A stretch of DNA of 64,000 nucleotides from an uncultured Chitinophagaceae bacterium (GTDB taxonomy: Bacteria; Bacteroidota; Bacteroidia; Chitinophagales; Chitinophagaceae): NCBI GenBank assembly GCA_964478125.1, contig CAYZGR010000005.1, positions 22,573 through 86,572 on the forward strand, written 5' to 3'. The notes below the pieces were generated by a model. That model was not told where the DNA came from. It made no database searches and saw only the letters and a program-made list of their open reading frames with translations. Both the position numbers and the translations under genes were made by a program. Of the stretch, positions 4,124 through 35,649 are shown in pieces (position 1 is the first letter of the stretch; each line of letters begins with the position of its first letter).

Positions 4124-4239
4124 CCATATTTCTTTGGGTTCAGAATGATATTTTAGAGCGGTTATCTGGTGTAAATTCTCCAAACCGAATAAATTCGATA
4201 TTCAGCCTGTAGAAAACGGAGGGATGAAGTGGAGATCCA

Positions 4240-4881
4240 TTAGGGGCTGACAAAAGGATTATGCTGTTTTTCATGCCCAATAGTAGTTTCGGGCCCATGT
4301 CCCGGATATACGATCGTATGATCCGGGAGCTTGAAGAGTTTGTCCCGGATGGAATTTAGGAGAAATTCCGCATTGCCGCCCGGCAGATCGGTACGCCCTA
4401 TACTTTCATTGAAAAGCACGTCCCCGCCGATCAGGAAATTTTGTTCCTCACAATAAAAACAAATGCTACCCGGGGAATGTCCGGGGGCCCAGATGACCGA
4501 AAACCGGTTATTTCCCAGAAACAGGTTGTCTCTCTCCTCGATATATTGTTCGGGTTTTGGAGAAGTTTCGAAAGGAAGGTTATAACGCATTCCCGCCTCT
4601 TTCGTCTGGTCTAAGACTGATTTTTCCGATTTATGCATTTCGGGTCTGAGGCCGAAATGGTCAAAAATGAGCTTATTACTGAAGATATGGTCCAGATGGC
4701 AATGGGTATTGAGCAGTCTTAGAGGGGATAAGTGGCGGGATCTCAAATAGTCCAAAAGCAATTCTTGTTCCTTTTTAAAATAAGCCCCCGGGTCAATAAT
4801 GAAACAGTCCTTTTTTTCGTTAATTAACAAAAATGTATTTTCCTGGAACGGATTAAATGTAAACGACTTAACTTCGAGCAT
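4240..4881 (-). CDS. MBL-fold metallo-hydrolase (glyoxalase II-like)
   Basis: 213 aa with the HxHxDH motif (HCHLDH) and later His/Asp ligands (PGHSPGS, GDVLF, PGHG). Confidence 0.85.
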   Translation of the reverse strand: MLEVKSFTFNPFQENTFLLINEKKDCFIIDPGAYFKKEQELLLDYLRSRHLSPLRLLNTHCHLDHIFSNKLIFDHFGLRPEMHKSEKSVLDQTKEAGMRYNLPFETSPKPEQYIEERDNLFLGNNRFSVIWAPGHSPGSICFYCEEQNFLIGGDVLFNESIGRTDLPGGNAEFLLNSIRDKLFKLPDHTIVYPGHGPETTIGHEKQHNPFVSP

Positions 4882-4942
4882 AATGCGGTTTTTTTGTACC
4901 TTTATTTGCTCAAAAATACGTGAATAACCTTAGTATCTTTTT

Positions 4943-7900
4943 ATGATGCGAAAATATTTAAGATTCTTCCTGCTGTTAAGCCTTTGTGGTGCAAGCTTTG
5001 ATGGATTCTCACAGACAAATACGGTTCGGTTTGGTAAAAACAGACTTCAATATAAAAAGTTTGACTGGCGCTATTTTAAGACAGATCATTTTAACACCTA
5101 TTTTAGCCAGGGAGGATTGGAATTAGGGAAGTATGTTGCACAAACGGCCGAGCAGGAATTGACCGATCTGGAAAAGATCATGGACTTTAGTACCCGGGAC
5201 CTGATCAATATCATTGTTTACAACAGTTATGGGGACATGAAGCAGTCCAATATTGGAATTGGGTTGGAATGGCAAAATACAGGAGGCGTTACCAAGCTGG
5301 TGGGTAATAAAATGATTATTTATTTTGATGGCAACCACAATAAGCTGAAAGTCCAGATCAGAGAAGGGATTGCCAAGGTTATCCTGAATAACATTATGTT
5401 TGGCAGTTCCGTGGGAGAGTTCGCGGGTAATGCAGTGCTGCTGAATTTGCCAAATTGGTATACGGATGGTTTTATTGCATTTGTTGCCGAAAACTGGAAT
5501 TCGGAACTGGATAACCAGCTCAAGCAATTGATCCGGACAGGACGTTACCAGACGTTTAACCAACTCGCCAATGAATTTCCTACTCTTGCCGGACATGCTT
5601 TCTGGTATTATGTTTCCAGCGTGTATGGTATGGATGCGCCTTCTTACCTGTTGTATATTTCACGGATTGACCGGAATATGAAGAAGGCGTTTCAACAAGT
5701 ATTGCATAAGAAGTACAAAGAGGTTATGCGGGAGTTTATCACTTATAGCTTCCGTCGCTATCAGGATGATAACCGGGGCCGCCGCCAGATCACCAGGGGG
5801 AGGGTGACAACCACGCAGTCCGATATAAAATCCCAACATTACCGAATCCATCCCAACCCGCGTAATCGGAATTATGCGATGGTGGAATTTAAACACGGGA
5901 TTTATGAGGTTCAGCTTTTTCAGGGCTTCTATAAACCAAAAGTATTATTGAAAAGCGGTGTTCGTGAATTAAAATCGCAGGTTAATCCGGACTATCCCCT
6001 GCTTGGTTGGGATGCGCAGGGCACCCGCCTGGCCATTATTTATCCCAAAAAAGGAAAATTGAAGTTAATGGTCTATGACCTCATCTCTAAGACAAAAATA
6101 AAAGAAGACCTGCCTGAAGATTTTCAGATGATTCAGAGTTTTCAGTACCTGCCCACTCAGCAAAACCTGTTGCTTTTGTCTGCCACCAAAAACGGCCATA
6201 CCGATTTATTTACTTATAACATCGGCACTTTCAAAACCACGCAGCTGACGAATGATGTTTTTGATGATGTGGATCCTTCTTATGTAGGTTTTTCTAAAAA
6301 GAGCGGGATCATTTTTTCCTCCAATCGTCCTGCTCCCCATGCAGTAAGTGCGGATACGGTATTGCCGCATCATCGCTACAATATATTTCTACTCAGTAAT
6401 TGGGATCAGCCGGAAGGCAGACAGATCACGCAGCTTACCGATCTAAAAATGGGAAATGCTCGTATGCCCATGCAGTATACCGACCGTTATTTCACCTTTG
6501 TGGGAGACCAAAATGGAATTAATAATCGCTATGCCGGTTTTTTTCAGTCTCAAAGTAATGGAATAGACACCCTTTATTATATTGGGGCCAATGTATTAAG
6601 AAATCCGGATCAGCCGGAATTGGATTCCATGCTGCAGAGCTATGGAAGTTCTCAACCGGATTCGGTAAAAATGGCGGCTATTACTTCCGACTCTACTTAT
6701 GTATTTCCATTGACCAATTATGCCGACGGGATAACCGAGTCTTATAGCGCCGGGCAGAAACAAATTGTTTCGGAAACCGTGAAGCGCGGTGATTTTACAA
6801 GGACTTACGAGCTGCAGGAAGATACCCGGACACTGGATCGACGGAATATCAGTACGCCTCTTACTACGTACAGAAGATATCAATTGCATCAGGATAGCGT
6901 GCGACGGGGCTTACCCATGTATTATGAGCAAACTACTCCCGATACTACGATGAACCCGGAAAATTATTTCCAGAGCGAATTTGGATATATTCCGCCGGAC
7001 AGTACCAATATTATACGCCAAAACCTGAAGCTGGAACAACAATTACAACGAAATAACGTATTGGGAAACGCCCGTTTATTTCCTTATCACCTGAAGTTTT
7101 CTACCGATTATTTAATTACGCAACTGGATAACTCCGTTTTGATTGATCGTTATCAGCCTTTTACCGGAGGCGGGGGCCCGATATACCTTCAACAGCCCTT
7201 TAATGGTTTGATCCAGGTGGGCGTCAGTGATCTGTTTGAGGATATTAAATTTACGGGCGGATTCCGTTTCCCCTCCAACTTCAATGGCAGCGAATATTAT
7301 TTCTCTTATAACAACTTGCGTCATTTCGTAGATTATAAATTATTATACTACCGTAAGGTAAACCGGGTGGGGTATAGTAATCTTCCTTACGAGGCCAAGA
7401 GAAGAACCAATTTATACCAGGTAGAGGTGACGCTTCCCATTGACGTCGTTCGAAGTGTAAGACTGACCCTTGGTTATAGAAGAGACCAGCTTACCACATT
7501 GGCCAGCGATGCCAATACGCTACCCAAAAATACGTTGGATAATGATCAGAAATTTGGTGTAACCCGTGCAGAATATGTATATGATAACACGATTAATCCG
7601 GCCATTAATATCTGGAACGGGTTGCGTTGGAAGGCTTATATAGAAATGTTACCACAACTAAATAAGCCTGCCGGAGTGAAGGAGCGGAATTTTACTTTTA
7701 ATGCCGGTCTGGACGCACGTTATTATTTACCCATCTATAAAAACTTTATCTGGGCTACCCGCTTTGCAGCTGATTTTAGTTGGGGAAACCGGAAGGTATT
7801 GTATTATCTCGGAGGAGTGGATAATTGGCTGGCCCCTAAATATAACAACAATACGCCCATTGATTTTTCAGCCAATTATGCATACCAGACGCTGGCAGAA

Positions 7901-8334: not shown

Positions 8335-8937
8335 TTGTCTAATAGCGGTAAAGTGTTAACTGGAAAAAAAGGTTTATCCGATGATTCCAGGCTCGTCAAA
8401 GAATGTCTACGTGGAAATGGCAAAGCGCAGAAAGCGCTTTATGACCGTTTCAGCACCAAAATGATGGGCCTTTGTTATCGGTATGTTCGCAACCGGGCAG
8501 ATGCGGAGGATATTCTCCAGGAGGGGTTCATAAAGGTGTTTACCTCCCTGAAGCAATTCCAGTCAACAGGATCATTAGAAGGATGGATTCGCAGGATCAT
8601 GGTGAATACGGCAATTAATTTTTTAAACAAAAACAAACGGCTACAGTATCGTATTGAAATTGAGGATCATACGCAGCCTGCAGGCCCTGAGGCAGCGGAT
8701 GCCGGTGTACATCAGGCAGATATCCTTTCCATGCTCCACCAACTGCCGACAGGTTACCGGACCATTATCAACCTGTATGCAATAGAAGGATATTCCCATA
8801 AAGAAATAGGAGAGAAACTGGGAATCGCAGAAGTGACTTCGCGGTCACAATATTCCAGAGGGAAAGAGATGTTGAAGAAAATACAGGCACAACAGGAAAA
8901 AGTACATATTCCGTATCCCAAAGAGGAGGAAAGATGA
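8335..8937 (+). CDS. ECF-type RNA polymerase sigma-70 family factor
   Basis: Region 2 (ADAEDILQEGFIKVF) and region 4 (YRTIINLYAIEGYSHKEIGEKLGIAEVTSRSQYSRGKEML) are present. No in-frame ATG lies upstream of region 2, so the start must be TTG 8335 or GTG 8353. Confidence 0.9.
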   Translation: MSNSGKVLTGKKGLSDDSRLVKECLRGNGKAQKALYDRFSTKMMGLCYRYVRNRADAEDILQEGFIKVFTSLKQFQSTGSLEGWIRRIMVNTAINFLNKNKRLQYRIEIEDHTQPAGPEAADAGVHQADILSMLHQLPTGYRTIINLYAIEGYSHKEIGEKLGIAEVTSRSQYSRGKEMLKKIQAQQEKVHIPYPKEEER

Positions 8938-10388
8938 AGGAAGATTTGAATAAACAATCTTGGGAAGAGCGGCTTAGGGAGGCTGCCGGTAAGGTGGAAG
9001 TGCAACCTTCAGGATTGGTATGGAATAAAGTGAAAGAGCAGTTGCCTGCTTCGCACGGGAAAATTTATTTCTACCGATGGGCGGCTGCTGCAGCGCTTTT
9101 GATCCTGATCGGACTTGGAGCCTACTTCTGGTTACTCCCTGGCCAGCAATCCCATCAAAGCGTAAGATCATTAACCTCAAGGGATCGCCTGCAGGAAAAA
9201 GCTGCCCCAAAGATACCTAAGCACAGACCATCTGCTCAGCGATCTGCACACCCACAAGCCTCCAGGCCGGTGAAGCAATCAATTGCGGCAAATACTTCGA
9301 GTCTTTCTCCCTCAGGGATATTGGAGGATTCCGGGAAGAATGCAAAATCCTCAAAGTCTATTTCTTCCCCGCGGATCCTGTCTCAGGAGCATCCAAAGGA
9401 ACGGCCCGTGATCTCCGGGCTTCCTCATTTGTCAAAAATCAGGTGGCAAGATATCGCGAAGGAAGAGTCCCGCGTAGCCGGTACACCTTCTTTGCAATCT
9501 TTGCAATACTCGGAAAGAATTATTCAACTTTTGCTCCCATCCGCTGAACTTTCTGCTCATCCGGATGCGGAAGCTGAAAGACCGGTTGGTAAATCGGGGG
9601 AGAACCGGGAAGGGAAGTTAGCCGTTGGTTTGTTTTTTACTCCCGGCATGAGCTATAGAACGCTCAAAACCCCAGGTAAATCTCATTCTCCGATTATGAA
9701 TGCCGCACCGGCTCCTTCCGGAGGAGGTTACAGCCTGATGTCTCCCCTGTCGACGGAAACAAACCGTATGAATCGAAGTGATAAACCCATGCAACAAAAA
9801 GAAAGCTGGGGATGGGAGTCTGGTTTGCGAGTGACTCTGAACCTTTCCAAGGGTTGGATTTTGCAATCCGGTTTATCTCTAAGAGAGACCAATTATAAAG
9901 TCACGGCTTACAAAGGATCCCCTGCCTACGTCAACCAAAGCGGGAACTCCATGGCTACCGCACGTCCCATGGCTAACTCCATGTACGCGTTATATGTCAG
10001 CAGGTTACCCGAAAATAACCTGCCGGTTACACTTCAAAACAAATACCTGAATACCGAGTTGCCCCTGTTAATCGGCAGAAGCTTTGGAAATCCGGATAAA
10101 CTCTCTTTTTCTATTCTGGCGGGCGCCGGGATTACCTACCTGCTGAGAGCGGATGCGGTAATGTATGCCCCGAAATCCCGGCGTTATTTTTCGGATAAGG
10201 ACTATCTCCATCCGTTTAACAGCAGCCTGATCCTGGAAACCAACCTGGATATTCCTTTAAGCCGGAACTTCCATTTTTCCATTGGCCCGGTGCTACAATA
10301 TCAGATATCTTCAAGTTACAAGGATTACAAAGCCGTGAAAGAATTCCCCTATTTAATTGGGCTAAAGACGGCTTTTCACCTCAAATGA
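8934..10388 (+). CDS. Anti-sigma-like membrane protein with a low-complexity linker and a C-terminal beta-barrel-like domain
   Basis: Its start overlaps the sigma gene stop in ATGA. It has one TM helix (WAAAAALLILIGLGAYFWLL), an S/P/K/Q-rich linker, and about 200 aa of amphipathic strand pattern at the C-terminus. Confidence 0.55.
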   Translation: MKEDLNKQSWEERLREAAGKVEVQPSGLVWNKVKEQLPASHGKIYFYRWAAAAALLILIGLGAYFWLLPGQQSHQSVRSLTSRDRLQEKAAPKIPKHRPSAQRSAHPQASRPVKQSIAANTSSLSPSGILEDSGKNAKSSKSISSPRILSQEHPKERPVISGLPHLSKIRWQDIAKEESRVAGTPSLQSLQYSERIIQLLLPSAELSAHPDAEAERPVGKSGENREGKLAVGLFFTPGMSYRTLKTPGKSHSPIMNAAPAPSGGGYSLMSPLSTETNRMNRSDKPMQQKESWGWESGLRVTLNLSKGWILQSGLSLRETNYKVTAYKGSPAYVNQSGNSMATARPMANSMYALYVSRLPENNLPVTLQNKYLNTELPLLIGRSFGNPDKLSFSILAGAGITYLLRADAVMYAPKSRRYFSDKDYLHPFNSSLILETNLDIPLSRNFHFSIGPVLQYQISSSYKDYKAVKEFPYLIGLKTAFHLK

Positions 10389-19407: not shown

Positions 19408-21255
19408 ATGAGCGATCCAATTAAGCATGAATGTGGCTTGATCTTCATACGTTTACGTAAGCCCTTTTCGTACTTTCAGAAAAAATATGGCACTGTCTTT
19501 TACGGCCTGAACAAACTGTATCTCCTGATGGAGAAACAACATAACCGCGGGCAGGATGGGGCGGGAATTGCCACGCTGAAACTACATACCGAGCCGGGTT
19601 ACCCTTTTTTGCACCGTATACGAAGCAATGCCAACCAGCCTATTCCCGAATTGTTTGGAAAGATCTTCTCGGAAGTGGGAGAAATTGAGAAATATCAACC
19701 GGATATGTTCAAGTATCCCGGGCTGATGAAGGGCAATATTCGTTTCCTGGGGGAATTGATCTTAGGACATCTTCGTTATGGTACCCAGGGGAAGAATAAT
19801 ATAGAACTTTGCCATCCTTTTGTTCGTTATGATCCGATACCTGCGAGGAATCTGACCCTGGCCGGTAATTTTAATATTGTAAATGTGCGGGAATTGTTTG
19901 ATTTTGTTCATGTAAAGCCCGGGCAATTGCATGCCGAGTCGGATCTGGCAGCCATGCTGGAAGTACTTTCTCACTTTATTACGCTGGAAGATAGAGCTAC
20001 TCCGGAGCAATTGGATCTGGTAAAAGTATTACGGCAGGCAGCGCCCATGTTTGACGGAGGGTATCACGTGGGGGGACTGGTAGGAAACGGAGACGGCTTT
20101 GTAATGCGCGACCCCAACGGCATCCGCCCGTCTTATTATTATGTGAACGATGAGATCGTTGTGGCAGCATCTGAACGGCCCGCCATCCAGACCGCCTTTG
20201 ACGTGCCTTTTGAGGAGATTAAAGAACTGGGTCCCGGTCATGCGCTGATCGCTAAAGAGAATGGAGAAGTGGCGGAAGAAGAAATTATGGAGCCGGGTGA
20301 AAAACGTTCCTGTAGTTTTGAACGCATCTATTTTTCCAGAGGTAATGATAAAGAAATCTATAAAGAACGACTCTCATTGGGGTATACTTTATCGGAGAAG
20401 GTGTTGGATGCCATTGACAATGATCTGAGGAACACGGTTTTTTCGTTTATTCCCAATACGGCGGAAGTGGCTTTTTATGGGTTAACAAAAGGGCTGGAGC
20501 ATTACCTGAATGAAATTAAAGTAAAACGCATCCTGGATTGGAAAAAAGCATATAAGGAAGAGCAGCTGGCAGAAATGATCAACCGCAGCGTTCGTATGGA
20601 GAAGATCGCTATAAAGGATGTAAAAATGCGTACTTTTATCGCTGCAGATTCCGGACGGGATGAGATGGTACAGCATGTTTATGATGTAACTTATGGTACG
20701 GTTCGCCCGGGGAAGGATACCCTTGTAGTTATTGATGATTCTATTGTCCGGGGGACCACCCTGAGAGAAAGTATTATTAAGATGCTGGACCGGCTCGGTC
20801 CGAAACGCATTATTGTGTTGTCTTCCGCTCCCCAGATCCGCTATCCGGATTGCTATGGTATTGATATGAGCAAAATGGGCGATTTCGTTGCCTTTCGTGC
20901 GGCCATCGCTTTATTGCGGGAGCGGGGAAAACAACATATACTGGAAAGCACCTATGGCTTATGTAAGGAACTGGCCAAGACGGATACGCTGGATGCACAA
21001 AATGCCGTGCGACATATATATAAGCCGCTGTCGGTAGAAGATATTTCTAAAAAAATTGCGGAGATCATCACGCCGGAAGGTACAAATGCGAGGGTAGAAG
21101 TGATCTACCAGTCTATCGAAAATTTGCACCAATCCTGTCCGAATAATCTGGGAGACTGGTATTTTACAGGAAATTATCCCACCCCCGGCGGTAATAAGGT
21201 AGTGAATCGTGCTTTTATGAACTTTATTGAAGGGAAAGACCAACGAGGATATTAA
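19408..21255 (+). CDS. purF: Amidophosphoribosyltransferase (long Bacteroidota form, class II glutamine amidotransferase)
   Basis: 615 aa with an Ntn Cys in KHECGL and a PRPP-binding loop (LVVIDDSIVRGTT). Confidence 0.8.
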   Translation: MSDPIKHECGLIFIRLRKPFSYFQKKYGTVFYGLNKLYLLMEKQHNRGQDGAGIATLKLHTEPGYPFLHRIRSNANQPIPELFGKIFSEVGEIEKYQPDMFKYPGLMKGNIRFLGELILGHLRYGTQGKNNIELCHPFVRYDPIPARNLTLAGNFNIVNVRELFDFVHVKPGQLHAESDLAAMLEVLSHFITLEDRATPEQLDLVKVLRQAAPMFDGGYHVGGLVGNGDGFVMRDPNGIRPSYYYVNDEIVVAASERPAIQTAFDVPFEEIKELGPGHALIAKENGEVAEEEIMEPGEKRSCSFERIYFSRGNDKEIYKERLSLGYTLSEKVLDAIDNDLRNTVFSFIPNTAEVAFYGLTKGLEHYLNEIKVKRILDWKKAYKEEQLAEMINRSVRMEKIAIKDVKMRTFIAADSGRDEMVQHVYDVTYGTVRPGKDTLVVIDDSIVRGTTLRESIIKMLDRLGPKRIIVLSSAPQIRYPDCYGIDMSKMGDFVAFRAAIALLRERGKQHILESTYGLCKELAKTDTLDAQNAVRHIYKPLSVEDISKKIAEIITPEGTNARVEVIYQSIENLHQSCPNNLGDWYFTGNYPTPGGNKVVNRAFMNFIEGKDQRGY

Positions 21256-24552: not shown

Positions 24553-25590
24553 CTACAAACGGGCGTAACGATAGGTATATTTAAACCATGAGCGTAAATT
24601 AGCCGGCCGTTCCATATCAATAATAAGCTTTTTACGTTCAATTTGGCGCATATCCGGCATCCGGATTTCGGTACCCTGTATTTTTTTAAGTTGATGAAGC
24701 GCTATCAGTCCGAAGGCGTAAATACCGGCCATAGATAAGGAAAGATCCTGCCTGCGATGGAGCGATTCCGGAAGCTGCCGGATCTGTTCCTTCATCTTGT
24801 TGATTTCACCCATGAAAAATTGTTCGAACGCATATACATCCTGCATGGTGTTAGGCAAGGTGGAAATCTCATCTTGCAGGTCTTTGTATATGTCATACAG
24901 GTCATTTGTCAACTGGATTAAGGTACCTAATCGATACCAACATTCTCTAACGGCGGTCGTGCGGGGGTGGTCCATATAAAAGCTGCAAAGCAAGACCGCA
25001 TATCCGCCTTTGTCAAAGGTGACTTTGCGGAGCGTTTCGGCAGAAAGCGTGCTGCGGTATTGCTCTTTGGATTGCTTTTGTGCCTCAAAAAGCTTTACGG
25101 ATACCTCATCGTACAGGTTTTCCTCTTTTACAAAACTCCTTAATAGTTTATGAGATTCTTTAAAAACAATTTCGTCAAAATTCCGGCAGTTGTATTGGTC
25201 ATAGTGAAATGATATATTATATAGTTGTTTTTCATCCAGCAGGTCATAGTCCGTGAAGTCGTCAAAAAGAGAACTGCATATAAAATAATGGATGAAACGC
25301 AATTTTTCTGATTTATTCATTCTTCGGTCTGCCAGTCGGGCAAAGGGTTGACATACCATCGGCAGGTAGATCCCGTAGCTAATGGCGATCTTTTTTCGGG
25401 TGGTCACCCTGAACCGGCCTTTATACTTTTTCTCGATTTTATCCAACAGCTTGTAAGCCCGTTTGGTCTCTTTTCGGCGCGTGAAGATAATGAAGAAGGC
25501 CCTTCTTATTACTGTCAGCCAAAACCAGAAGAAATATTGCATGCCATTAGGGTTGTTTTTTAAAGTATTGTGCAGAGGTTTAAGAACCAT
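24553..25590 (-). CDS. Membrane-anchored protein with squalene/phytoene-synthase-like (class I isoprenoid enzyme) Asp-rich motifs
   Basis: It has an N-terminal TM helix, DDFTDYD (nt 25243-25263) and LGTLIQLTNDLYDIYKDLQDE (motif core nt 24868-24906). An alternative start is ATG 25542. Confidence 0.45.
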   Translation of the reverse strand: MVLKPLHNTLKNNPNGMQYFFWFWLTVIRRAFFIIFTRRKETKRAYKLLDKIEKKYKGRFRVTTRKKIAISYGIYLPMVCQPFARLADRRMNKSEKLRFIHYFICSSLFDDFTDYDLLDEKQLYNISFHYDQYNCRNFDEIVFKESHKLLRSFVKEENLYDEVSVKLFEAQKQSKEQYRSTLSAETLRKVTFDKGGYAVLLCSFYMDHPRTTAVRECWYRLGTLIQLTNDLYDIYKDLQDEISTLPNTMQDVYAFEQFFMGEINKMKEQIRQLPESLHRRQDLSLSMAGIYAFGLIALHQLKKIQGTEIRMPDMRQIERKKLIIDMERPANLRSWFKYTYRYARL

Positions 25591-26855
25591 ACAAAGGAAT
25601 CATTGACCGATAAGCGGTTCTCCCGGCCATGGACCTGCACTCTTAATAATTGGTTTTCAAGATATAGCGTTTGCCGGTAAGCCGGGCAGATAAAATAATA
25701 TTTGATCCATTGGCTGAACAGCAAAAGTTTTTTCCAGAACCGGGGTAGTATACTGGAAAAACTGGCTACAAAAAAAGTGTTATCGCCTGCATTCAGATCA
25801 TGGGCCCCTGGCAGAGACACCGGTAAAGGATCGCCACCCAGGCGTATTATGGTGGTGGAAAGCAATATGCTGTCCAGCCAGTTATCAGATTGGCGGTATT
25901 GCATGCGGGCAGTTTGCAGCAGTTGGGGTTTTAAACTATCCAATGCAGGAAGGGAAGTAGCAGCCAGCAAGCGGGATATATGATATAATAGTATCGGAGT
26001 CCTTCCGTAATGGGGAGAAATGAAAGCGGGACGGGTCAGATAAGAGCTGTCTGTGATCATCTTGTGCAAAAGTTTAACAGAAGCGCTGTCCTGCCTGTTG
26101 AAGGGCAAATTGAAATAATGAACGAAGTATAACACATTGCAAAGGACGCAAAAATCAAAGTCAATGGGCATTTTTACTCCAAACCAGGTGGAATAAGCGG
26201 GCAGATCCCGGTATGCCGGCCGGGTATTGCGTATAAGGTTAAGGGAGCCGTTGGCATGCTCGGCCATGAGTCTTTTTACCAGATGAATGATACTGTCTGA
26301 CGGGTTTTGACTCAGCCAGAGGATGGCCGTATCATCCAGGTCGTCCGGCAGCTGCTGAGACTTATTGAATAGATTCAAAAAACCGGAATTGGGGAAAACC
26401 AGAGGAGGATGTGTTCGCCAGAAATTATACGTGGGAAGTCCGGAGGTGTTCCGGAAGTGCGGGTAAGCAGCCTGTGCCCTTTGGATAATGGAATCGCTTT
26501 GTACTTGTTGTCGCGGGCTCATATAAGGTTGAAGGTATTTCAGGGTAAAAGCAATTAAACCGGTAAAGAAAATATTGTTGTCCGGTTTTAGTTTATCACC
26601 CCGGCCATAACGTCGAAAGGAAGGGAAACTGCCTTTATAGAAAAAATCGGTTTGCTGCATTTGCCGGTCGGCGATCGTGGCTAATAATGAATCGATGCGA
26701 TGGGTATCCTGGGCATAACAGGAAGGATAGGAGATCATCAGGCTGCTCCATAACAGGGGAATCATCCACAACAACCTTTTGTAGACGTCCTTTTTACGTG
26801 TCGGAAGAGAAGAAGATATATTCTTAATACGATCCATCCGGGCAAAAATAAACAT
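25560..26855 (-). CDS. Signal/anchor-bearing alpha/alpha-toroid-like protein with a class II terpene-cyclase DxDDTA motif
   Basis: 431 aa. DLDDTA occupies aa 172-177 (nt 26325-26342). Helix-hairpin patterns repeat along the sequence. The gene starts 8 nt downstream of gldB. Confidence 0.4.
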   Translation of the reverse strand: MFIFARMDRIKNISSSLPTRKKDVYKRLLWMIPLLWSSLMISYPSCYAQDTHRIDSLLATIADRQMQQTDFFYKGSFPSFRRYGRGDKLKPDNNIFFTGLIAFTLKYLQPYMSPRQQVQSDSIIQRAQAAYPHFRNTSGLPTYNFWRTHPPLVFPNSGFLNLFNKSQQLPDDLDDTAILWLSQNPSDSIIHLVKRLMAEHANGSLNLIRNTRPAYRDLPAYSTWFGVKMPIDFDFCVLCNVLYFVHYFNLPFNRQDSASVKLLHKMITDSSYLTRPAFISPHYGRTPILLYHISRLLAATSLPALDSLKPQLLQTARMQYRQSDNWLDSILLSTTIIRLGGDPLPVSLPGAHDLNAGDNTFFVASFSSILPRFWKKLLLFSQWIKYYFICPAYRQTLYLENQLLRVQVHGRENRLSVNDSFVWFLNLCTIL

Positions 26856-26863
26856 GTTTCGGT

Positions 26864-27895
26864 TTAGTGCGGCCTGTATCCCGATTTGCTCAGGAGCTTT
26901 TGTCCGTCAGGTAGTTTCATAAGCTCTGGAAGAGAAGTTCCCGGATATTTTTCCATATACTTACGGATGATCTGCCAGCCTATCCAACTGCCGATATTTC
27001 CGGGGGCCTCCAGGGGCATACCCCGTGAAGAGGGGCCGGGCCCTATATAATAGCGAATGGTCAGTGGATCATTTTCATATAATAAGTTTTTTCTGATAAA
27101 ATATTGCCAGATAAACTGCTCGTTCTTTTTGCACCACTGCAGTTGTTTTTCCGAATAACCTATTTTAAGAGCATCTTTTGTTTCGGGCAATATTTTATCT
27201 AAGAAGTAAAGTTGTTTCCCGTATGCGGTCATTTGGTCCAGGAGCGTTCCCTTTTCCTCTATCGGAAACAGCTGTTGTTCGATAACCTTAATACAACTGA
27301 CCACTAATTGGTTTGCAGAAAAACTTTTTAGAATATAAGCCGGATAAGGATTTACCACCTGCCTGTATAATGGGAAACCGGCTCCTAAGAACATATCCAG
27401 TCCAATTCCCAATACGGAGTCAACGGTAATGGCGCCGTAATTCGCCAAGGCAGACATGAAAGTGACCACGCGAGGGGGATGAAAAGAAGGCAGGTAATAT
27501 TTGATGTACCGAAAGCTTTGATCGAGCTGCCTGTTGATCTGTTGGATCTTTCTTGGAGGGAAATGTGCATCTATGGTATCTTGCAGTTTCTGTATATCTT
27601 TACTGGTTATGAAAGCTTTTATATCTCTTTTGGACCATCCGCTATCCGTAGGAGAAACAAAATTCATGATCTGGTTCATATAGACCGGGAAAAACTCGGG
27701 ATAGTTTTTTTCCAAATGGGATAGACCGCTATCAAGATGGTCCGGGTTGAGTCTCATAAACTCCTGATCAAATCTTTCTATATGGACTGAAATGGGGATA
27801 TGGCTGACATCAGGAGCCTTTTTGCCCGAATGGCATCCTTCAATCAGTAAAAACGAAAGGATCCATAAGGCAGGATATGATCTTTTTCGGAGCAT
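26864..27895 (-). CDS. gldB: Gliding motility lipoprotein GldB
   Basis: 343 aa with a lipobox (LLIEGC) and the GldB-like block SVHIERFDQEF. Size is consistent with GldB. Confidence 0.75.
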   Translation of the reverse strand: MLRKRSYPALWILSFLLIEGCHSGKKAPDVSHIPISVHIERFDQEFMRLNPDHLDSGLSHLEKNYPEFFPVYMNQIMNFVSPTDSGWSKRDIKAFITSKDIQKLQDTIDAHFPPRKIQQINRQLDQSFRYIKYYLPSFHPPRVVTFMSALANYGAITVDSVLGIGLDMFLGAGFPLYRQVVNPYPAYILKSFSANQLVVSCIKVIEQQLFPIEEKGTLLDQMTAYGKQLYFLDKILPETKDALKIGYSEKQLQWCKKNEQFIWQYFIRKNLLYENDPLTIRYYIGPGPSSRGMPLEAPGNIGSWIGWQIIRKYMEKYPGTSLPELMKLPDGQKLLSKSGYRPH

Positions 27896-27916: not shown

Positions 27917-29419
27917 TTATTTTACTTTGGGATAAACGATTTTGCTCCAAAACCGGGGTTGGTGGGTGCCTAAATCGTCCATAGCCGCATTACTCAACTT
28001 AATGATAAGGTTATAATTCTCCTTTTGTTGCGGGATAGAGGCGAGTACCTTCACGTATACATATTTATTATTGATGGGGTTGATCACCTTTACAATCGTA
28101 CCCCGGGGCAAGTCATTGCAGAGGGCATAATATTTTTTTGATCCGGGTTTTACATTACTTTTGAACCATCCGGCTGCTCCCTTTTTGGTACTGATGATCT
28201 TTTCGTTTTGTGTTTGTGCCAGGTAGAGCTCCTGGAACTCGCTTTTTTGCGCAAGCTCCAAAGTGGAAGAATCGGTCGCGTCAAGAGGACTTGAATCGGG
28301 AAGGGCTATCGGACTGTCCTTCTTTGTCGTTGATGGCGTCTTTTGAATGTGAGGCAATGAAGTCGTTTCATGTGCTGGGGGCATTGGCTCCGAAGAGGAG
28401 GTCTGGCCTTGAGTTTTAGGTTGGGGTTCTGCTTTGGACGCAGTCGTTTTCTCAGGGGATTTTTTTGAATCCGGACGTGATTTATGAGTTAATTTGTTCA
28501 GCATCTCCTCGAAAGGATTTTCTTTTTTTGCAGCGCTGATACCGGAAGGCTCCTGTGGAGCCTCCTCGGAAGAGGCGGTTTGCTCTTTCTGGCTTACGGG
28601 AGGGGCGGGTGAAGTGGTTTTTTGTATAGTTTCCACATTGTTATTATGTATTAACGGCTGAGAAAGGGGGCCGGGATGCTTTTCATTCTCCTGAGAGGAC
28701 GACTTGTCCGGCGTCTCTTCCGTTTGTACGGTAGCCAGCAAAGGTTTGGATACCGGTTCGCTGCTTGTCCGTTTGTCTTCTATTTGGCTGACTCTTTGGC
28801 GTTCGGAGGCAATTACTTCTTTTAAGAAGCGATCTCCTCCCCGGCTGTGTGGGGCAACATCTGCTGCGGGCTTTGATGCCGCCGGTTGGGATGGCTCTTC
28901 GGGATTGGCGGCAATAGATTTGTTTTGCTGTCCGGGCGGTGTCGCAGGAAGGTTTCCGGCGTCAGGAAGTTTCTTTAACCATCCAATAATGAGATACTGG
29001 CCTACCTGAATGGTATTCCCATTTAAATCGTTCCATTCCCGTAATGAAGCGAGCGGCAGGTCTCCGTATATTTTACTTACTCTGAAGAGCGTCTCTCCTT
29101 TTAAAACCTTGTGATATAAAGGAGTGAGTCCTGAATGCGCATTGCTATTCTGAATAATATTGTTTTTGGAAAGCGGTATTTTAACAAGGGTATAGATTTT
29201 CAAGGGATGGGAATTATTGATGTTATTGAGCTTCTTCAGTCGCTCTTCCGAAACGCCGAATGTTTGGGAGAGGGATTGAAGGGTTTCTCCTTTTTCCACT
29301 ACATGATAGAAATACATGCCGGAGGTTCCAGGTGCAACCACGATCGTATCTTTTGAAGTCTGTCCGAATGCGGTAACGGTTAACCACAGAAATGAAAAAA
29401 AAATGAATAGTGCTTTCAT
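27917..29419 (-). CDS. Secreted protein with two LysM domains, a long disordered linker and a C-terminal RlpA/DPBB-like region
   Basis: Two LysM repeats are present (YHVVEKGETLQSLS..., YHKVLKGETLFRVS...). A linker of about 250 aa is rich in P, S, Q, T and K. Confidence 0.8.
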   Translation of the reverse strand: MKALFIFFSFLWLTVTAFGQTSKDTIVVAPGTSGMYFYHVVEKGETLQSLSQTFGVSEERLKKLNNINNSHPLKIYTLVKIPLSKNNIIQNSNAHSGLTPLYHKVLKGETLFRVSKIYGDLPLASLREWNDLNGNTIQVGQYLIIGWLKKLPDAGNLPATPPGQQNKSIAANPEEPSQPAASKPAADVAPHSRGGDRFLKEVIASERQRVSQIEDKRTSSEPVSKPLLATVQTEETPDKSSSQENEKHPGPLSQPLIHNNNVETIQKTTSPAPPVSQKEQTASSEEAPQEPSGISAAKKENPFEEMLNKLTHKSRPDSKKSPEKTTASKAEPQPKTQGQTSSSEPMPPAHETTSLPHIQKTPSTTKKDSPIALPDSSPLDATDSSTLELAQKSEFQELYLAQTQNEKIISTKKGAAGWFKSNVKPGSKKYYALCNDLPRGTIVKVINPINNKYVYVKVLASIPQQKENYNLIIKLSNAAMDDLGTHQPRFWSKIVYPKVK

Positions 29420-29528: not shown

Positions 29529-30725
29529 CTAATTGTTTTCTGCCTTTTCTCTTTTTCTTCGTAGAATTTCTTTCTTTAGCAGGCGTTGTTCACGGCCCAT
29601 TTGCCCGGAAATAGAACTGTTCTCCCGGGAGCGTCTGATAAGATAGGGCAATACATGCTTTACGGGCCCGTAAGGCAAATATTTGGAAACGCTGAATCCT
29701 GCGCGTGCAAGGTTAAAGGTAATGTTATCGCTCATGCCATAAAGCTGCGAAAAATGCACATGCGGATGGTCGTATGGAATTTGGTGATCATGCATAAATT
29801 GGGCTGCCCGCATACAGCTTTCTTCGTTATGAGTTCCGATAAACAGAGCCAGTCCGTCAAGATGTTTCAGGCTCCATCTGACGGCCTTGTTGAATTCCCT
29901 GTCGGTGGCCGCCTTATCCGGCTGGATGGGAGAAGGATCGTTTTTTTCTTTGGCTCGCTTTCGTTCTTTTTCCATATAGGCGCCGCGAACCAGTTTCGCA
30001 CCCGGCAGATATCCCTCTTCCCGGCTTTGTTGCCATTGCTGCATTAAGGCTTTGAAGCGACCCTGCCGGTAAAGCTGGAAGGTGTTATAAATGATTGCTT
30101 CTCTTTTATTGAACTGTTGCATCATTTGACGGGCAAGCAGATCTATAGGTCCCTGAATCCAACTTTCTTCTGCATCAATTAACAGACCCGTATGGTGCTG
30201 GTATGCCGTTTGGCAAATTGTTTTTATCCGCTCATATACCTTTTGCCATTCTGCCTCTTCTTTTTTGGTCAGGGGAAGACCGCTATGATATTTTTCCAGC
30301 AATTGAAAACGGGCAAACCCCGTTATTTTTAGACTGATCATGGGAATATCTTCCTGGCTTCCGGCATAACGAATGGCTTTTTGAAACTCAGAGACTGCCA
30401 GATCATAATTTTTTTCTCCTTCTGACCGCTCCACCCCATAGTCCAGGGTACATTTTACCGCATAGGCATGCAGTCCTGCAGCAGTTGTGGCAGCCTCTTC
30501 AAGAGTCTCTCCCCCGCAGAACAACTCAAAGATGGTATTGCGGATCAACCCTTTTATGGGGAGATGTAATTTTAATGCAAGGGGTGCAAGAAAGGAGCCC
30601 GCCCGTACCAGAAAACCATAGCGCATTAGTGAATATAAACGGTATGACTTTCGCAGGGACCGATCTGATTTATAGGCGAAGGCGTGTTGTGTATTTTCAA
30701 AAGAAATGGACAAAGGCTTTCCCAT
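29529..30725 (-). CDS. Proline dehydrogenase (monofunctional)
   Basis: 398 aa with PRODH blocks (LVRGAYMEKERKRA, FSQLYGMSD). Confidence 0.85.
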   Translation of the reverse strand: MGKPLSISFENTQHAFAYKSDRSLRKSYRLYSLMRYGFLVRAGSFLAPLALKLHLPIKGLIRNTIFELFCGGETLEEAATTAAGLHAYAVKCTLDYGVERSEGEKNYDLAVSEFQKAIRYAGSQEDIPMISLKITGFARFQLLEKYHSGLPLTKKEEAEWQKVYERIKTICQTAYQHHTGLLIDAEESWIQGPIDLLARQMMQQFNKREAIIYNTFQLYRQGRFKALMQQWQQSREEGYLPGAKLVRGAYMEKERKRAKEKNDPSPIQPDKAATDREFNKAVRWSLKHLDGLALFIGTHNEESCMRAAQFMHDHQIPYDHPHVHFSQLYGMSDNITFNLARAGFSVSKYLPYGPVKHVLPYLIRRSRENSSISGQMGREQRLLKKEILRRKREKAENN

Positions 30726-30868
30726 TCATTTGATAATTTTATAATAATTATAACATTTAACCGCCAAAATTAAGGGGATTTGAATTAATAGAATAAAACT
30801 AAATTTTATATTCGCCTTATGTGAGAGACATGGGGTGAAGCACCGGGTTATTTCATGTGAACTTAATG

Positions 30869-33456: not shown

Positions 33457-34179
33457 ATGAGCAAAAAAAGTACCGGGAAAAAAAGAAGAAAAAGATTCCG
33501 TTTTCTGAAACGTTTTATTCTTTATGTTTTTATCATTCAGTTGTTGTACATCATTGCTCTTAAATGGATCAATCCTCCTTTCACGCTGACTACTTTAGGG
33601 AGCAGAATCGCACTTATCGGTACCGATCGTTCTTTCCATCGGGAATGGGCGTCTTACGGCGATATTGCATTATATGCAAAGCTTGCCGTTATCGCAGGTG
33701 AGGATCAGAGATTCCCCTCGCATCATGGTTTTGACATGAAGTCTATTCGTAAGGCCTGGGAGCATAATCATGAAGGGGGACGGCGCAGGGGGGCAAGTAC
33801 CATTAGTCAACAAACGGCAAAAAATGTTTTCCTCTGGCAGGGAGGAGGGTGGTTTCGTAAGGGACTGGAAGTCTATTTTACATTTATGATAGAACATATC
33901 TGGGGGAAAAAGCGTATTCTTGAGGTCTATTTGAATGTAGCCCAGATGGGTAAAGGTATTTTTGGAGTGGAAGCGGCCTCAGAATATTATTTTCATGTTC
34001 AAGCCAAGAAGCTTTCCCGTGTGCAAGCCGCAATGCTGGCCGCTAGTTTGCCGAATCCCTTATATTATACCATCAAACCGCTGGCGGGTCGTACACGCTA
34101 CCGGCAGCGATGGATCTTGTCGCAGATGAGGAATCTACGGGGTAACCCGGAATTGGAAAAGTTGTTGCATGAACCATAA
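33457..34179 (+). CDS. mtgA: Monofunctional peptidoglycan glycosyltransferase
   Basis: GT51 motifs are present (GEDQRFPSHHGFD, GASTISQQTAKN) along with an N-terminal TM helix. Confidence 0.9.
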   Translation: MSKKSTGKKRRKRFRFLKRFILYVFIIQLLYIIALKWINPPFTLTTLGSRIALIGTDRSFHREWASYGDIALYAKLAVIAGEDQRFPSHHGFDMKSIRKAWEHNHEGGRRRGASTISQQTAKNVFLWQGGGWFRKGLEVYFTFMIEHIWGKKRILEVYLNVAQMGKGIFGVEAASEYYFHVQAKKLSRVQAAMLAASLPNPLYYTIKPLAGRTRYRQRWILSQMRNLRGNPELEKLLHEP

Positions 34180-34854: not shown

Positions 34855-35649
34855 CTACAACCATCCACTTTGCACCAAAACGATAATGATGACCCCTATG
34901 ATGATCCGGTACACGCCAAACCATTTGAAACCATGTTTTTGTAAGTAGGAAATGAAAGATTTGATCGCAATCATGGCGATCACAAAAGCCACTACATTGC
35001 CGATAAGCAGGATGGTGATATTCCGGCCGTTGGATAATATTTCCGGGCTATCCAGGAAGGCCTTGAGCAATTTGTAACCGGTAGCCGCGGCCATGGTTGG
35101 AACTGCAAGGAAGAAAGAAAATTCTGCAGCTACCTTTCGCGTCAGCTTCTGTTGCATTCCGCCAATAATGGTGGCTGCGCTCCGGCTGACCCCCGGAATC
35201 ATGGCAATACATTGCCAGAAACCCACCCGTAATGCCTGGAAAATAGTCATGTCCTTTTCGTGAGAAACTTTAGGGCTTTGGAACCATTGATCTACAAAAA
35301 GAAGTACCACTCCTCCAACGGCTAACATGATGCCTACGATTAAAGGGCTTTCCAGTAACAGGTCAATTTTGTCGGCAAACAGATAACCCAGGATCAGGGC
35401 GGGGATAACACCGATAATAATCTTTTTATAAAAATCCATGCGGCTGAAATCAAAGAATTTCCGCCAGTACAAAACGACTACGGCTAATATGGCACCCAAC
35501 TGGATTACGATTTCAAACAACTTGGTAAATTCCAGGGTATCAATACCCATCCAGGAGCTGACAACGATCATGTGGCCGGTGGAGGATACGGGTAAAAATT
35601 CGGTAAGTCCTTCAACAATGCCAAGAATAATGGCCTGAATAATGCTCAT
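34855..35649 (-). CDS. uppP: Undecaprenyl-diphosphate phosphatase
   Basis: 264 aa with BacA motifs (GIVEGLTEFLPVSSTGH, PGVSRSAATI). Confidence 0.95.
   Translation of the reverse strand: MSIIQAIILGIVEGLTEFLPVSSTGHMIVVSSWMGIDTLEFTKLFEIVIQLGAILAVVVLYWRKFFDFSRMDFYKKIIIGVIPALILGYLFADKIDLLLESPLIVGIMLAVGGVVLLFVDQWFQSPKVSHEKDMTIFQALRVGFWQCIAMIPGVSRSAATIIGGMQQKLTRKVAAEFSFFLAVPTMAAATGYKLLKAFLDSPEILSNGRNITILLIGNVVAFVIAMIAIKSFISYLQKHGFKWFGVYRIIIGVIIIVLVQSGWL

Follow-up and report, generated by a model that had tools for sequence, protein, structure and literature searches.

Two neighbouring genes from an uncultured Chitinophagaceae bacterium, referred to here as ORF1 and ORF2, constitute a real and so far uncharacterised isoprenoid module. 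As to what the module does, we consider the chances about evenly balanced that ORF2 and ORF1 act as enzymes of a common pathway by which the Chitinophagaceae make or modify a membrane isoprenoid, with their position beside gldB being incidental. The genes lie in a 64,000-nt stretch of assembly GCA_964478125.1 (contig CAYZGR010000005.1, positions 22,573 to 86,572), the whole of which is called the window. ORF1 occupies 25560..26855 on the minus strand and is 431 aa as the longest open reading frame, with a probable start at M7 (nt 26837). ORF2 occupies 24553..25542 on the same strand and encodes 329 aa, its longest open reading frame form beginning at 25590 and giving 345 aa; the 329-aa protein is the most likely form, M17 (nt 25542) being the start in the gene call of the database and in nearly every homologue. 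The coordinates given for both genes in a first-pass annotation of the window agree with the ORF list, as do the intergenic distances, which are 21 nt between the LysM gene and gldB, 8 nt between gldB and ORF1 and, for ORF1 and ORF2, an overlap of 31 nt or a gap of 17 nt according to the start chosen.

That ORF1 is a homologue of the class II terpene cyclase (TC-beta) domain, and a putative cyclase, is supported by its predicted structure. The AlphaFold2 model (mean pLDDT 90.3) forms one (alpha/alpha)6 barrel. When it was compared with the PDB by Foldseek, the best eight matches were all to AsDMS (E 3e-9 to 2e-8), the bifunctional drimenol synthase of Aquimarina spongiae (PDB 9M7D/E/F, 9MHS and 9MLO), and the next matches appeared only at E 3e-3, the E value of AsDMS being about a million-fold better than that of any other alpha/alpha barrel. 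The match to AsDMS has a TM-score of 0.53 over the full query and an identity of about 15%. Tpn2, which we take to be a two-domain class II cyclase, is also listed (E 9e-3). AsDMS is the best PDB match of the ORF1 profile as well, with marginal E values of 0.018 and 0.14, and the mapping of residues between the two proteins depends on this marginal alignment. The first-pass annotation had described ORF1 as an alpha/alpha toroid related to class II cyclases, a description borne out by the AsDMS match and by the location of the DxDD at the AsDMS catalytic Asp positions.

The motif D171-D-L-D-D-T-A177 (26325..26345, minus strand), whose DLDDTA portion lies at aa 172-177 (nt 26325-26342) as reported earlier, is of the class II general-acid type. 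In the family alignments D172 and D174 are invariant and conservation at D171 and D175 is 90% or higher, and in the HMM alignment the PDDLDDT of ORF1 falls on the PDDLDTT of AsDMS, which places D172 and D174 opposite D331 and D333. In AsDMS these two residues are catalytic, and Y427 is the hydrogen-bond partner of the catalytic Asp, the Y427F variant being inactive (PMC12365925). Opposite Y427 stands Y283 of the ORF1 segment S280-P-H-Y283 (26007..26018, minus strand), a residue that is invariant also in homologues of 32-34% identity. ORF1 also has many invariant aromatic residues (F96, F145, W146, F154, Y221, W224, Y283 and Y291), which recall those of cyclase cavities. On the model and the marginal alignment, ORF1 thus appears to match a class II beta domain in its barrel fold, its conserved acid motif and its Tyr partner. 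Because the Asp residues of both proteins, D172/D174 in ORF1 and D94/D98/D214/D217 in ORF2, are invariant down to 20-33% identity, their motifs are not chance occurrences.

[quoted passage not shown] It differs in carrying DxDDT where AsDMS has DxDTT, in possessing a signal peptide and in having no HAD phosphatase domain, for which there was no Pfam match, the barrel following directly after the signal peptide. ORF1 likewise had no match to SQHop_cyclase_N/C, Prenyltrans or a gamma domain, and its model is a single barrel. In AsDMS, diphosphate recognition involves Y373, R378, R380, R425, Y426 and R513, and the cyclisation step is Mg2+-independent (PMC12365925). Unlike AsDMS, ORF1 has W/M/D/A in place of Y373/R378/R380/R425: within the aligned stretch Y373 is opposite W224, and the three arginines, opposite M229, D232 and A277, are absent. 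Y426 is opposite F278 (Y in most homologues), and R513 falls outside the stretch. The absence of the diphosphate-binding residues would suit a substrate that carries no diphosphate. The merosterolic acid synthase MstE (PDB 6SBB) is a single beta domain with a DxD acid motif that uses a prenylated, diphosphate-free substrate (PMC12414744), and a mono-beta sesquiterpene synthase of Sorangium cellulosum is also a stand-alone beta domain (bioRxiv 10.1101/2025.09.20.677545). ORF1 is like MstE in being a stand-alone beta domain and in the proposed logic of a prenyltransferase followed by a cyclase. Unlike ORF1, however, neither MstE nor the Sorangium enzyme is reported to have a signal peptide, and MstE is absent from the top 50 structural matches of ORF1.

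ORF1 is predicted to be an exported protein. Its hydrophobic N-terminus, which the first-pass annotation had read as a membrane anchor, looks like a cleavable Sec signal peptide, and anchoring is therefore not shown. The predicted signal peptide (26712..26837, minus strand; aa 7-48, MDRIKNISSSLPTRKKDVYKR-LLWMIPLLWSSLMISYPSCYA, cut before QD) has a positive n-region, a hydrophobic h-region and a ...CYA followed by QD, with the A-Q-D pattern being found family-wide in the alignment. The h-region reaches a 10-aa Kyte-Doolittle mean of at least 2.0 in 82 of the 87 homologues having an N-terminal extension (1.82 in the ORF1 of the window), and two homologues carry the signal peptide and a repeat linker of about 90 aa ahead of the domain. 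The presence of a signal peptide would also suit a reading that we regard as rather improbable, in which ORF1 is an alpha/alpha-barrel enzyme that is exported but has a non-isoprenoid as its substrate, for example as an envelope glycan hydrolase, lyase or isomerase; it would then have only ancient ancestry in common with cyclase beta domains, and its adjacency to ORF2 would be gene-order drift. The LysM protein and GldB envelope genes nearby in the window are in keeping with this, as are the GH8 xylanase and YihS-type isomerase among the second-tier fold matches, the lack of a cyclase Pfam match and the absence of the AsDMS diphosphate-binding arginines. However, the AsDMS cyclase domain is a roughly million-fold better match than any glycoside hydrolase or thioester domain, three AsDMS residues essential by mutagenesis lie opposite invariant residues of ORF1, and the adjacency of gldB and LysM is not conserved, whereas that of ORF1 and ORF2 recurs in five or more arrangements and, in Chitinophaga, together with UbiA, far more often than a chance estimate of about 0.25%.

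The predicted structure of ORF2 supports its placement in the class I isoprenoid fold in the broad sense, and each of its two conserved acidic motifs is on a helix of its own. The AlphaFold2 model has a mean pLDDT of 94.5, and its top 50 Foldseek matches in the PDB are all class I isoprenoid-fold enzymes, most with a probability of 1.00, including CrtM, FPPS/GGPPS, a class IB terpene synthase, BjKS and Sat1646. The all-helical fold is like that of PF00348, PF00494/CrtM and the class IB to IF enzymes. The first Asp-rich motif, D-D-F-T-D (25249..25263, minus strand; aa 94-98 of the 329-aa form, D-[DN]-x-x-D in the family), belongs to the DDFTDYD previously placed correctly at nt 25243-25263. Its D94 and D98 are invariant in 67 sequences, down to 19% identity, and in the model it sits at the C-terminal end of helix 77-98. 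The second, N-D-L-Y-D-I-Y-K-D (24880..24906, minus strand; aa 213-221 of the same form), belongs to NDLYDIYKDLQDE, located, again as described, at nt 24868-24906, within a longer LGTLIQ... string that reaches nt 24930; Q210, D214 and D217 are invariant, and conservation at D221 is 90% or higher. Counted from first residue to first residue, the two motifs lie 119 aa from each other, in agreement with the first-pass annotation, and the DxxxD pair D94..D98 and D217..D221 is separated by 123 residues. As in class I enzymes, both motifs are at helix C-terminal ends, 119-123 residues apart; the spacing in CrtM is presumably comparable, at about 120-125 residues. The earlier claim of a class I fold with two conserved Asp-rich motifs thus stands on the Foldseek top 50 and the invariance of the residues. 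The same annotation saw a membrane anchor in the N-terminal helix of ORF2. Anchoring is not shown here because this helix is moderately hydrophobic (best 19-aa Kyte-Doolittle mean 1.4; family median 0.92, with 1.6 reached by only 6 of 87 members) and AlphaFold packs it inside the helical bundle, which leaves no clear transmembrane helix. ORF2 is predicted to be cytoplasmic.

The models thus lead ORF1 to the AsDMS cyclase domain and ORF2 to the class I isoprenoid fold, and no curated Pfam or NCBIfam family comes over its threshold for either protein, ORF1 having no match in these collections even at E up to 1. For the ORF2 family the sub-threshold Pfam matches are SQS_PSY, polyprenyl_synt and Terpene_synth_C. 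The proposal that ORF2 is specifically a squalene/phytoene synthase gains no support above threshold: it scores 15.6 bits against the SQS_PSY (PF00494) threshold of 26 (E 0.013, residues 199-249 only), a homologue, P0146, scores 13.1 bits, and the support is no better than that for a trans-prenyl-diphosphate synthase. The second motif aligns, in both cases below threshold, with SQS_PSY profile positions 125-176 and with the FQxxDDxxD of trans-prenyl-diphosphate synthases. Nor does ORF2 match the canonical class I cyclases (PF03936, PF19086), with 11.5 bits against the 26.3 of Terpene_synth_C; it has DDFTD, and in its second motif Asp takes the places of the Ser/Thr and Glu of NSE/DTE. In contrast to the known class I families, its second motif is NDxxDxxKD and not DDxxD, NSE/DTE or DxxED. 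Class IB to IF terpene synthases are not recognisable by standard family models (PMC11234867), and ORF2 is like them in escaping such models.

Another possibility, which we consider unlikely, is that ORF2 is a divergent trans-prenyl-diphosphate synthase feeding UbiA, with ORF1 as the cyclase of the prenylated lipid. This is a sub-variant of the shared-pathway explanation that gives ORF2 a specific chemistry, following the meroterpenoid logic of synthase, UbiA and cyclase. With a broad ORF2-family profile, the sub-threshold PDB matches are nearly all GGPP, FPP and octaprenyl-PP synthases, and these alignments, one of which stays in register across both Asp motifs, pair K178 of ORF2 with a conserved Lys and QLxNDxxD with FQxxDDxxD. 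K178 (25009..25011, minus strand, 329-aa numbering), the invariant Lys of ITxxKGG, is opposite the conserved Lys (llKtGkL) of geranyltranstransferase 3lom, and we take it to be the 'KT' box Lys of prenyl-diphosphate synthases; both this Lys and the invariant Gln of ORF2 are placed similarly to theirs. One family member matches Pfam polyprenyl_synt with E 1e-3, and ORF2 acts as the hub of the neighbourhoods, UbiA-ORF2 occurring without ORF1 and ORF2-ORF1 without UbiA. However, every such match is below threshold, those in the PDB having E 0.047 or weaker and one family member scoring 18.7 bits against the 27 of PF00348, and the Foldseek results favour other enzymes, CrtM giving the best E (1e-3) and the class I diterpene synthases Sat1646 and BjKS the highest TM-scores. 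Prenyl-diphosphate synthases bind isopentenyl diphosphate through a basic GKRxR before, and an RRG after, the first Asp motif. Unlike in those enzymes, neither was seen in the ORF2 family consensus, which has D[DN]xxD and NDxxD as its motifs and in which the DDFxDxxxL region shows no isopentenyl-diphosphate-binding basic residues.

ORF1 has 605 homologues, almost all without a name or called 'hypothetical', and genes of the ORF1 type are present in 485 or more species-level genomes, which are all, or almost all, Chitinophagaceae-like. The ORF2 superfamily, with 1228 uncurated clusters at 50% identity (E up to 1e-3), may extend far beyond the range of the ORF1 family. The description of the pair as unannotated was only half correct, since a number of ORF2 homologues bear names in NCBI and UniRef ('class 1 isoprenoid biosynthesis enzyme', 'phytoene/squalene synthetase'). 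Of 80 genome loci centred on ORF1, 9 have an ORF2 homologue within 6 kb, and of 80 metagenome loci centred on ORF2, 11 have an ORF1 homologue within 5 kb. The two are neighbours in about 12% of related loci and unlinked in about 88%, and this adjacency, which includes tandem in both orders, divergent and convergent arrangements, is far above the estimated chance expectation. The pair thus recurs in other genomes, but in a minority of loci and with no fixed module. In unlinked loci ORF1 is flanked by an acyl-CoA dehydrogenase gene and a YggS gene, and ORF2 adjoins an aldehyde dehydrogenase gene, and the remaining frequent neighbours are housekeeping genes. A tight UbiA-ORF2-ORF1 operon, with 11-nt gaps and 4-nt overlaps, is found in Chitinophaga niabensis, C. 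deserti, C. pinensis and others, UbiA-ORF2 without ORF1 at loci L093 and L094, and ORF2-ORF1 without UbiA elsewhere. The UbiA gene that precedes ORF2-ORF1 in Chitinophaga has the digeranylgeranylglyceryl phosphate (DGGGP) synthases as its nearest family (NF009512, E 7.5e-51; PDB 6m31, E 1.4e-10), although with 173 bits against the NF009512 cut-off of 278 it is not an equivalog. In the window, a motif scan, a tblastn search and Pfam scans that covered 27 of the 55 ORFs, between about 8.9 and 42 kb, found neither a UbiA nor a prenyl-diphosphate synthase gene; for the synthase this agrees with the first-pass annotation.

From the folds, conserved residues, signal-peptide features and recurring neighbourhoods we infer a shared pathway whose substrate, topology, catalysis and order of steps could be as follows. 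ORF2, on the cytoplasmic side, would bind a prenyl diphosphate via Mg2+ held by D94..D98 and N213-D214..D217..D221, with K178 also binding, and would then build the prenyl chain or ionise and transfer it. In Chitinophaga the adjoining DGGGP-synthase-like UbiA would attach the chain to an acceptor. The lipid product would move to the outer face of the inner membrane, where ORF1, as a Sec-exported, single-beta-domain class II-type enzyme, would use D174, helped by D172 and Y283, to protonate a C=C of the chain, leading to cyclisation or a related acid-catalysed step that would require no diphosphate, metal or ATP. In the sporulenol pathway of Bacillus subtilis, the tetraprenyl-beta-curcumene synthase YtpB is followed by the cyclase SqhC, the class I-type enzyme stripping the diphosphate first and the class II enzyme then cyclising a membrane hydrocarbon. 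The order proposed for ORF2 and ORF1 would, by analogy, be identical. SqhC, however, has two domains (beta-gamma) and stays in the cell, whereas ORF1 has a single domain and is predicted to be exported. Observations that count against the shared pathway as proposed include the predicted location of ORF1 and ORF2 on opposite sides of the inner membrane, the failure of the scans to find UbiA or a prenyl-diphosphate synthase in the window, the marginal sequence similarity of ORF1 to a cyclase, and the large share of loci in which the genes are unlinked.

Class II cyclases made of a lone beta domain, and class I enzymes that standard sequence models miss, were discovered very recently and few of either have been characterised; the present locus suggests that a large, untouched family of both kinds exists. 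The literature searched yielded no exported class II terpene cyclase, and none of the terpene cyclases described so far is known to be exported. It is a bold and, in our estimate, doubtful proposition that the ORF1 homologues are the first terpene cyclases outside the cytoplasm, cyclising the prenyl chain of a membrane lipid at the periplasmic face; the lipid could then be a prenyl ether or meroterpenoid from ORF2 and the DGGGP-synthase-like UbiA. If true, it would imply unrecognised cyclic isoprenoid lipids in Chitinophagia, possibly replacing hopanoids or sterols. Bacteroidota are able to make archaeal-type prenyl-glycerol intermediates, and cyclisation by ORF1 would be a possible fate of these. 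The operon in culturable Chitinophaga, including C. pinensis, offers a small testable system for a new bacterial isoprenoid lipid, and would test whether cofactor-free, acid-catalysed terpene cyclisation occurs in the periplasm.

The first-pass annotation had also linked the pair functionally to gldB, gliding and envelope genes. The identity of GldB is strong (PF25594, E 4e-106; TIGR03514 over its cut-off), but of 80 ORF1 loci just 1 has a GldB homologue within 6 kb, of 80 ORF2 loci none has one within 5 kb, and neither gldB nor LysM adjacency is conserved across these loci. Since the gldB-ORF1-ORF2 order of the window recurs only in the closest relative (L001), a gliding link is not supported, and the position beside gldB looks like an incidental, local accident of gene order. 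It is very improbable, in our view, that the genes form a class II then class I pair, in which a prenyl diphosphate is cyclised and then ionised, tied to gliding or the envelope via gldB. The genes from LysM to ORF2 are on the same strand with short gaps, their order is repeated in that closest relative, and Sat1646 and BjKS, which head the TM-scores of the ORF2 model, are class I diterpene synthases using class II products (PMC9814573). Against this, the synteny largely refutes the gldB link, the predicted export of ORF1 would take it away from prenyl diphosphates, ORF1 has no counterparts of the diphosphate-binding arginines of AsDMS, and a candidate promoter box is present at the ORF1 start. 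The box, TATTTTTG (26843..26850, minus strand), matches the Bacteroidota -7 consensus (TAnnTTTG), coincides in part with codons 2-4 of ORF1 in its long form and is a weak hint that ORF1-ORF2 may have a promoter of their own; it could be due to chance because the motif is no commoner in the window (63) than in shuffles (61). On the minus strand of the 24.5-30.8 kb region there is just one other match, at 30765-30772, upstream of the proline dehydrogenase gene.

No Pfam or NCBIfam model matched ORF1 (25560-26855, minus strand, 431 aa) above threshold, and its 605 homologues in a large protein collection are nearly all unnamed or called 'hypothetical'. At least 485 species-representative genomes carry relatives; the best 80 of them are Chitinophagaceae-like and include Chitinophaga, Sediminibacterium, Filimonas and Deminuibacter. 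The very recent Pfam entry PF28380 may already cover part of the family, as PF28380.1 is precomputed on four homologues (P0067, P0071, P0072 and P0117). Chitinophagaceae-type homologues were also seen at three loci (L032, L034 and L055) of metagenome-assembled genomes labelled Brevundimonas, Caulobacter and Synechococcus, bins that are probably mislabelled or contaminated. The AlphaFold2 model of ORF1, a confident one (pLDDT 90.3, pTM 0.85), is a single alpha/alpha barrel. Its eight best Foldseek matches in the PDB, at E values from 3e-9 to 2e-8, are without exception AsDMS chains; AsDMS is a drimenol synthase from the flavobacterium Aquimarina spongiae (PMC12365925). A second tier, beginning at E 3e-3, consists of alpha-2-macroglobulin and complement thioester domains, Tpn2, GH8 xylanase and a YihS-type isomerase. 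These matches are much weaker than those to AsDMS, and the readings of ORF1 as a thioester-domain protein of the alpha-2-macroglobulin/C3 kind or as a glycoside-hydrolase protein were rejected.

AsDMS was also the best sequence when the ORF1 family profile was compared with the PDB, although the match was marginal (E 0.018) and became no stronger when distant homologues were added to the alignment (E 0.14). In this weak alignment, P170-D-D-L-D-D-T of ORF1 falls on P-D-D-L-D-T-T of AsDMS, and S-P-H-Y283 falls on Y427. In AsDMS the proton donor is D333, which is activated by Y427, and the D331A/N, D333N and Y427F mutants are all inactive (PMC12365925). The motif aspartates of ORF1, D172 and D174, together with Y283, are invariant even in homologues at 32-34% identity. 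By the same weak alignment, the diphosphate-binding residues Y373, R378, R380 and R425 of AsDMS correspond to W224, M229, D232 and A277, so that ORF1 would keep the acid machinery without the diphosphate clamp, which fits a protein predicted to be sent to a compartment free of prenyl diphosphates. AsDMS has a HAD domain and the clamp, whereas ORF1 has neither. The class II cyclase likeness proposed in the first-pass annotation is borne out by the fold and the invariant acid motif but not by any curated family. As ORF1 matches no curated model and lacks the AsDMS-type HAD and clamp features, we have classed it with the TC-beta domain as a divergent and exported relative, outside every named family.

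The same annotation had described ORF1 as membrane-anchored. The family alignment shows a positive N-terminus, then a hydrophobic stretch, then ...A-Q-D ahead of the conserved domain, with a strong h-region in 82 of the 87 homologues that have an N-terminal extension; this is the pattern of a signal peptide and not of a membrane anchor. Two homologues, P0086 (487 aa) and P0106 (482 aa), have their signal peptide separated from the barrel by a repeat linker (...IHQ...) that is rich in His and Gln and some 90 residues long.

ORF2 (24553-25590, minus strand, 345 aa as the longest ORF) matched only SQS_PSY among Pfam models, and that below threshold (15.6 bits vs 26); equally weak matches were obtained with other family members, to SQS_PSY again and to polyprenyl_synt and Terpene_synth_C. 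Nothing reached threshold when ORF2 and its distant relatives were scanned against Pfam and NCBIfam, and a narrow ORF2 profile found only noise in the PDB. Some homologues are named 'class 1 isoprenoid biosynthesis enzyme' or 'phytoene/squalene synthetase' by NCBI or UniRef. The AlphaFold2 model is very confident, with a pLDDT of 94.5, and its best 50 structural matches in the PDB are all enzymes with the class I isoprenoid fold: the lowest E (1e-3) belongs to CrtM and the top TM-scores (0.54-0.56) to Sat1646 and BjKS, and the others include FPP/GGPP synthases and class IB terpene synthases. An exhaustive profile search gathered a superfamily of 1228 clusters at 50% identity (E up to 1e-3; proteins of about 330 aa). 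Among 67 members, at identities down to 19%, there is no variation at D94, D98, K178, Q210, D214 or D217 (numbered on the 329-aa form) and almost none at D221; these positions coincide exactly with the two Asp-rich motifs noticed earlier, plus a Lys and a Gln. A broad profile gave sub-threshold PDB matches, almost all to trans-prenyl-diphosphate synthases, in which K178 lies on a conserved Lys and QLxNDxxD on the second Asp-rich motif, FQxxDDxxD. By virtue of the structural matches, the invariant motifs and these alignments, the predicted fold and metal/diphosphate-binding site are well supported, and the reaction catalysed may be one of chain elongation, of head-to-head condensation, of cyclisation or of transfer. 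The narrower likeness to squalene/phytoene synthases holds as regards the class I fold but not the SQS_PSY family itself, and ORF2 can be placed in the class I fold superfamily only if that is taken broadly. Its N-terminal helix, once taken for a transmembrane segment, is aromatic-rich and only moderately hydrophobic, and is therefore not a canonical one.

Both ORFs close a minus-strand run made up of a proline dehydrogenase gene (29529-30725), a LysM protein gene (27917-29419), gldB (26864-27895; PF25594 E 4e-106, TIGR03514 above cut-off), ORF1 and ORF2, with a plus-strand chloride-channel gene convergent on it. The ORF1 and ORF2 motifs and coordinates of the first-pass annotation were exact on re-checking. 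The start of ORF2 is almost certainly M17 (nt 25542, 329 aa), the position at which the public call begins along with almost every homologue, and this leaves a 17-nt gap downstream of ORF1. For ORF1 itself M7 is a possible start, since this is where the close relative P0003 begins (MDK...). Its C-terminal tail of about 25 residues (VQVHGRENRLSVNDSFVWFLNLCTIL, nt 25560-25640) is absent from most homologues and overlaps the upstream alternative start of ORF2. The Bacteroidota -7 box TAnnTTTG, whose count over the whole window is at chance level, has only two minus-strand matches from 24.5 to 30.8 kb. One (30765-30772) precedes the proline dehydrogenase gene; the other (26843-26850) sits right at the ORF1 start, where it overlaps codons 2-4 of the long form. 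This hints at two transcription units and at M7 as the start of ORF1. In a promoter and terminator scan the counts did not differ from those in shuffles. The LysM protein carries a pair of LysM domains at its N-terminus, a long low-complexity middle rich in Pro, Ser, Gln and Lys, and a C-terminal region with weak RlpA-like matches (TIGR00413, residues 429-486, E 0.005).

A link of the ORF1-ORF2 pair to gldB and the LysM gene, and through them to gliding and the envelope, had been suggested and is rejected on synteny. In the 80 ORF1-centred genome loci gldB adjoins ORF1 just once, in the closest relative (L001), and in the 80 ORF2-centred metagenome loci it never stands beside ORF2; this rarity and the possible -7 box at the ORF1 start leave the link unsupported. 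The pair itself recurs, with an ORF2 homologue within 6 kb of ORF1 in 9 of the 80 genome loci and an ORF1 homologue within 5 kb of ORF2 in 11 of the 80 metagenome loci, against a chance adjacency of two given genes that we estimate at about 0.25% per genome. ORF2 lies downstream of ORF1 in the window's clade and upstream in five Chitinophaga species, and the ORF2-centred loci include convergent, divergent, tandem and slightly separated arrangements, a variety which argues for repeated selection of proximity. In Filimonas lacunae and Dinghuibacter, for example, as in most of the genomes, the pair is unlinked. When the neighbourhoods of ORF1 and ORF2 were clustered, the frequent neighbours besides each other and UbiA were all housekeeping genes (acyl-CoA dehydrogenase, YggS, aldehyde dehydrogenase, uracil-DNA glycosylase, acyltransferase, LptD and triose-phosphate isomerase), which reflect shared gene-order ancestry and not function.

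Among the contextual evidence, an isoprenoid pathway is supported most strongly by UbiA, a third isoprenoid enzyme that is recognisable independently. In Chitinophaga niabensis a UbiA prenyltransferase gene, ORF2 and ORF1 follow one another in a tight operon, whose junctions are a gap of 11 nt and an overlap of 4 nt. The UbiA gene also stands ahead of ORF2 in C. deserti, C. pinensis, C. rhizosphaerae and two other Chitinophaga; the three-gene Chitinophaga operon spans 4137-7113 of locus L165 and 4012-7131 of the C. deserti locus L021, and is present at L014, L015, L027 and L040. Two metagenome contigs (L093 and L094) have UbiA ahead of ORF2, with no ORF1 homologue on the remaining 4-5 kb or so downstream of ORF2. 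The Chitinophaga UbiA is nearest to digeranylgeranylglyceryl-phosphate synthases (NF009512, E 7.5e-51, below the cut-off; PDB 6m31, 1.4e-10). In C. deserti an ABC1/UbiB-type atypical kinase gene (L021 7190-8521, minus strand) converges directly on the ORF1 homologue, and none was seen at the equivalent position in C. niabensis; kinases of this type have been linked to the metabolism of prenylquinones and lipids. The window itself holds no UbiA, no ORF1 or ORF2 paralogue and, as had been noted, no recognisable prenyl-diphosphate synthase.

What the analysis shows are the folds, the conserved residues, the signal-peptide features and the gene neighbourhoods. In the most likely scheme, which we infer as regards the substrate, product, topology and catalysis of the two proteins, ORF2, plus UbiA where present, would act on a prenyl diphosphate at the cytoplasmic side and yield a diphosphate-free membrane isoprenoid. 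Exported ORF1 would then protonate a double bond of that lipid via D174, D172 and Y283, leading to cyclisation or another rearrangement, a step that would need no cofactor and could therefore run in the periplasm. This order, ORF2/UbiA first and ORF1 second, reverses the classical diterpene order of class II then class I that the first-pass annotation had implied. In the Bacillus YtpB/SqhC pathway, too, the class I step comes first and the class II step second. The same order is followed by MstE, which cyclises a prenylated aromatic after a class I/transferase step (PMC12414744).

Our literature searches, which covered exported and Chitinophaga class II cyclases and the context of GGGP synthase in Bacteroidota, found no paper describing the ORF1 or ORF2 family and no description of an exported class II cyclase. 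The domain and fold types themselves are already known: stand-alone beta-domain class II cyclases are represented by MstE (PMC12414744) and a Sorangium enzyme (2025 preprint, bioRxiv 10.1101/2025.09.20.677545), HAD-fused TC-beta enzymes by AsDMS (PMC12365925), and class I enzymes invisible to sequence models by classes IB to IF (PMC11234867).

Elsewhere in the window, the only other gene found to act on a polyprenyl lipid encodes a BacA/UppP undecaprenyl-diphosphatase (34855-35649), which is probably unrelated housekeeping; together with a monofunctional peptidoglycan transglycosylase gene (33457-34179) it lies about 7-9 kb from ORF1. Two plus-strand ORFs, 8934-10388 (484 aa) and 19408-21255 (615 aa), are large but have no Pfam match with an E of 1e-5 or better. 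By eye, we take the 615-aa product, with its N-terminus MSDPIKHECG, to resemble an N-terminal-nucleophile glutamine amidotransferase (PurF-like).
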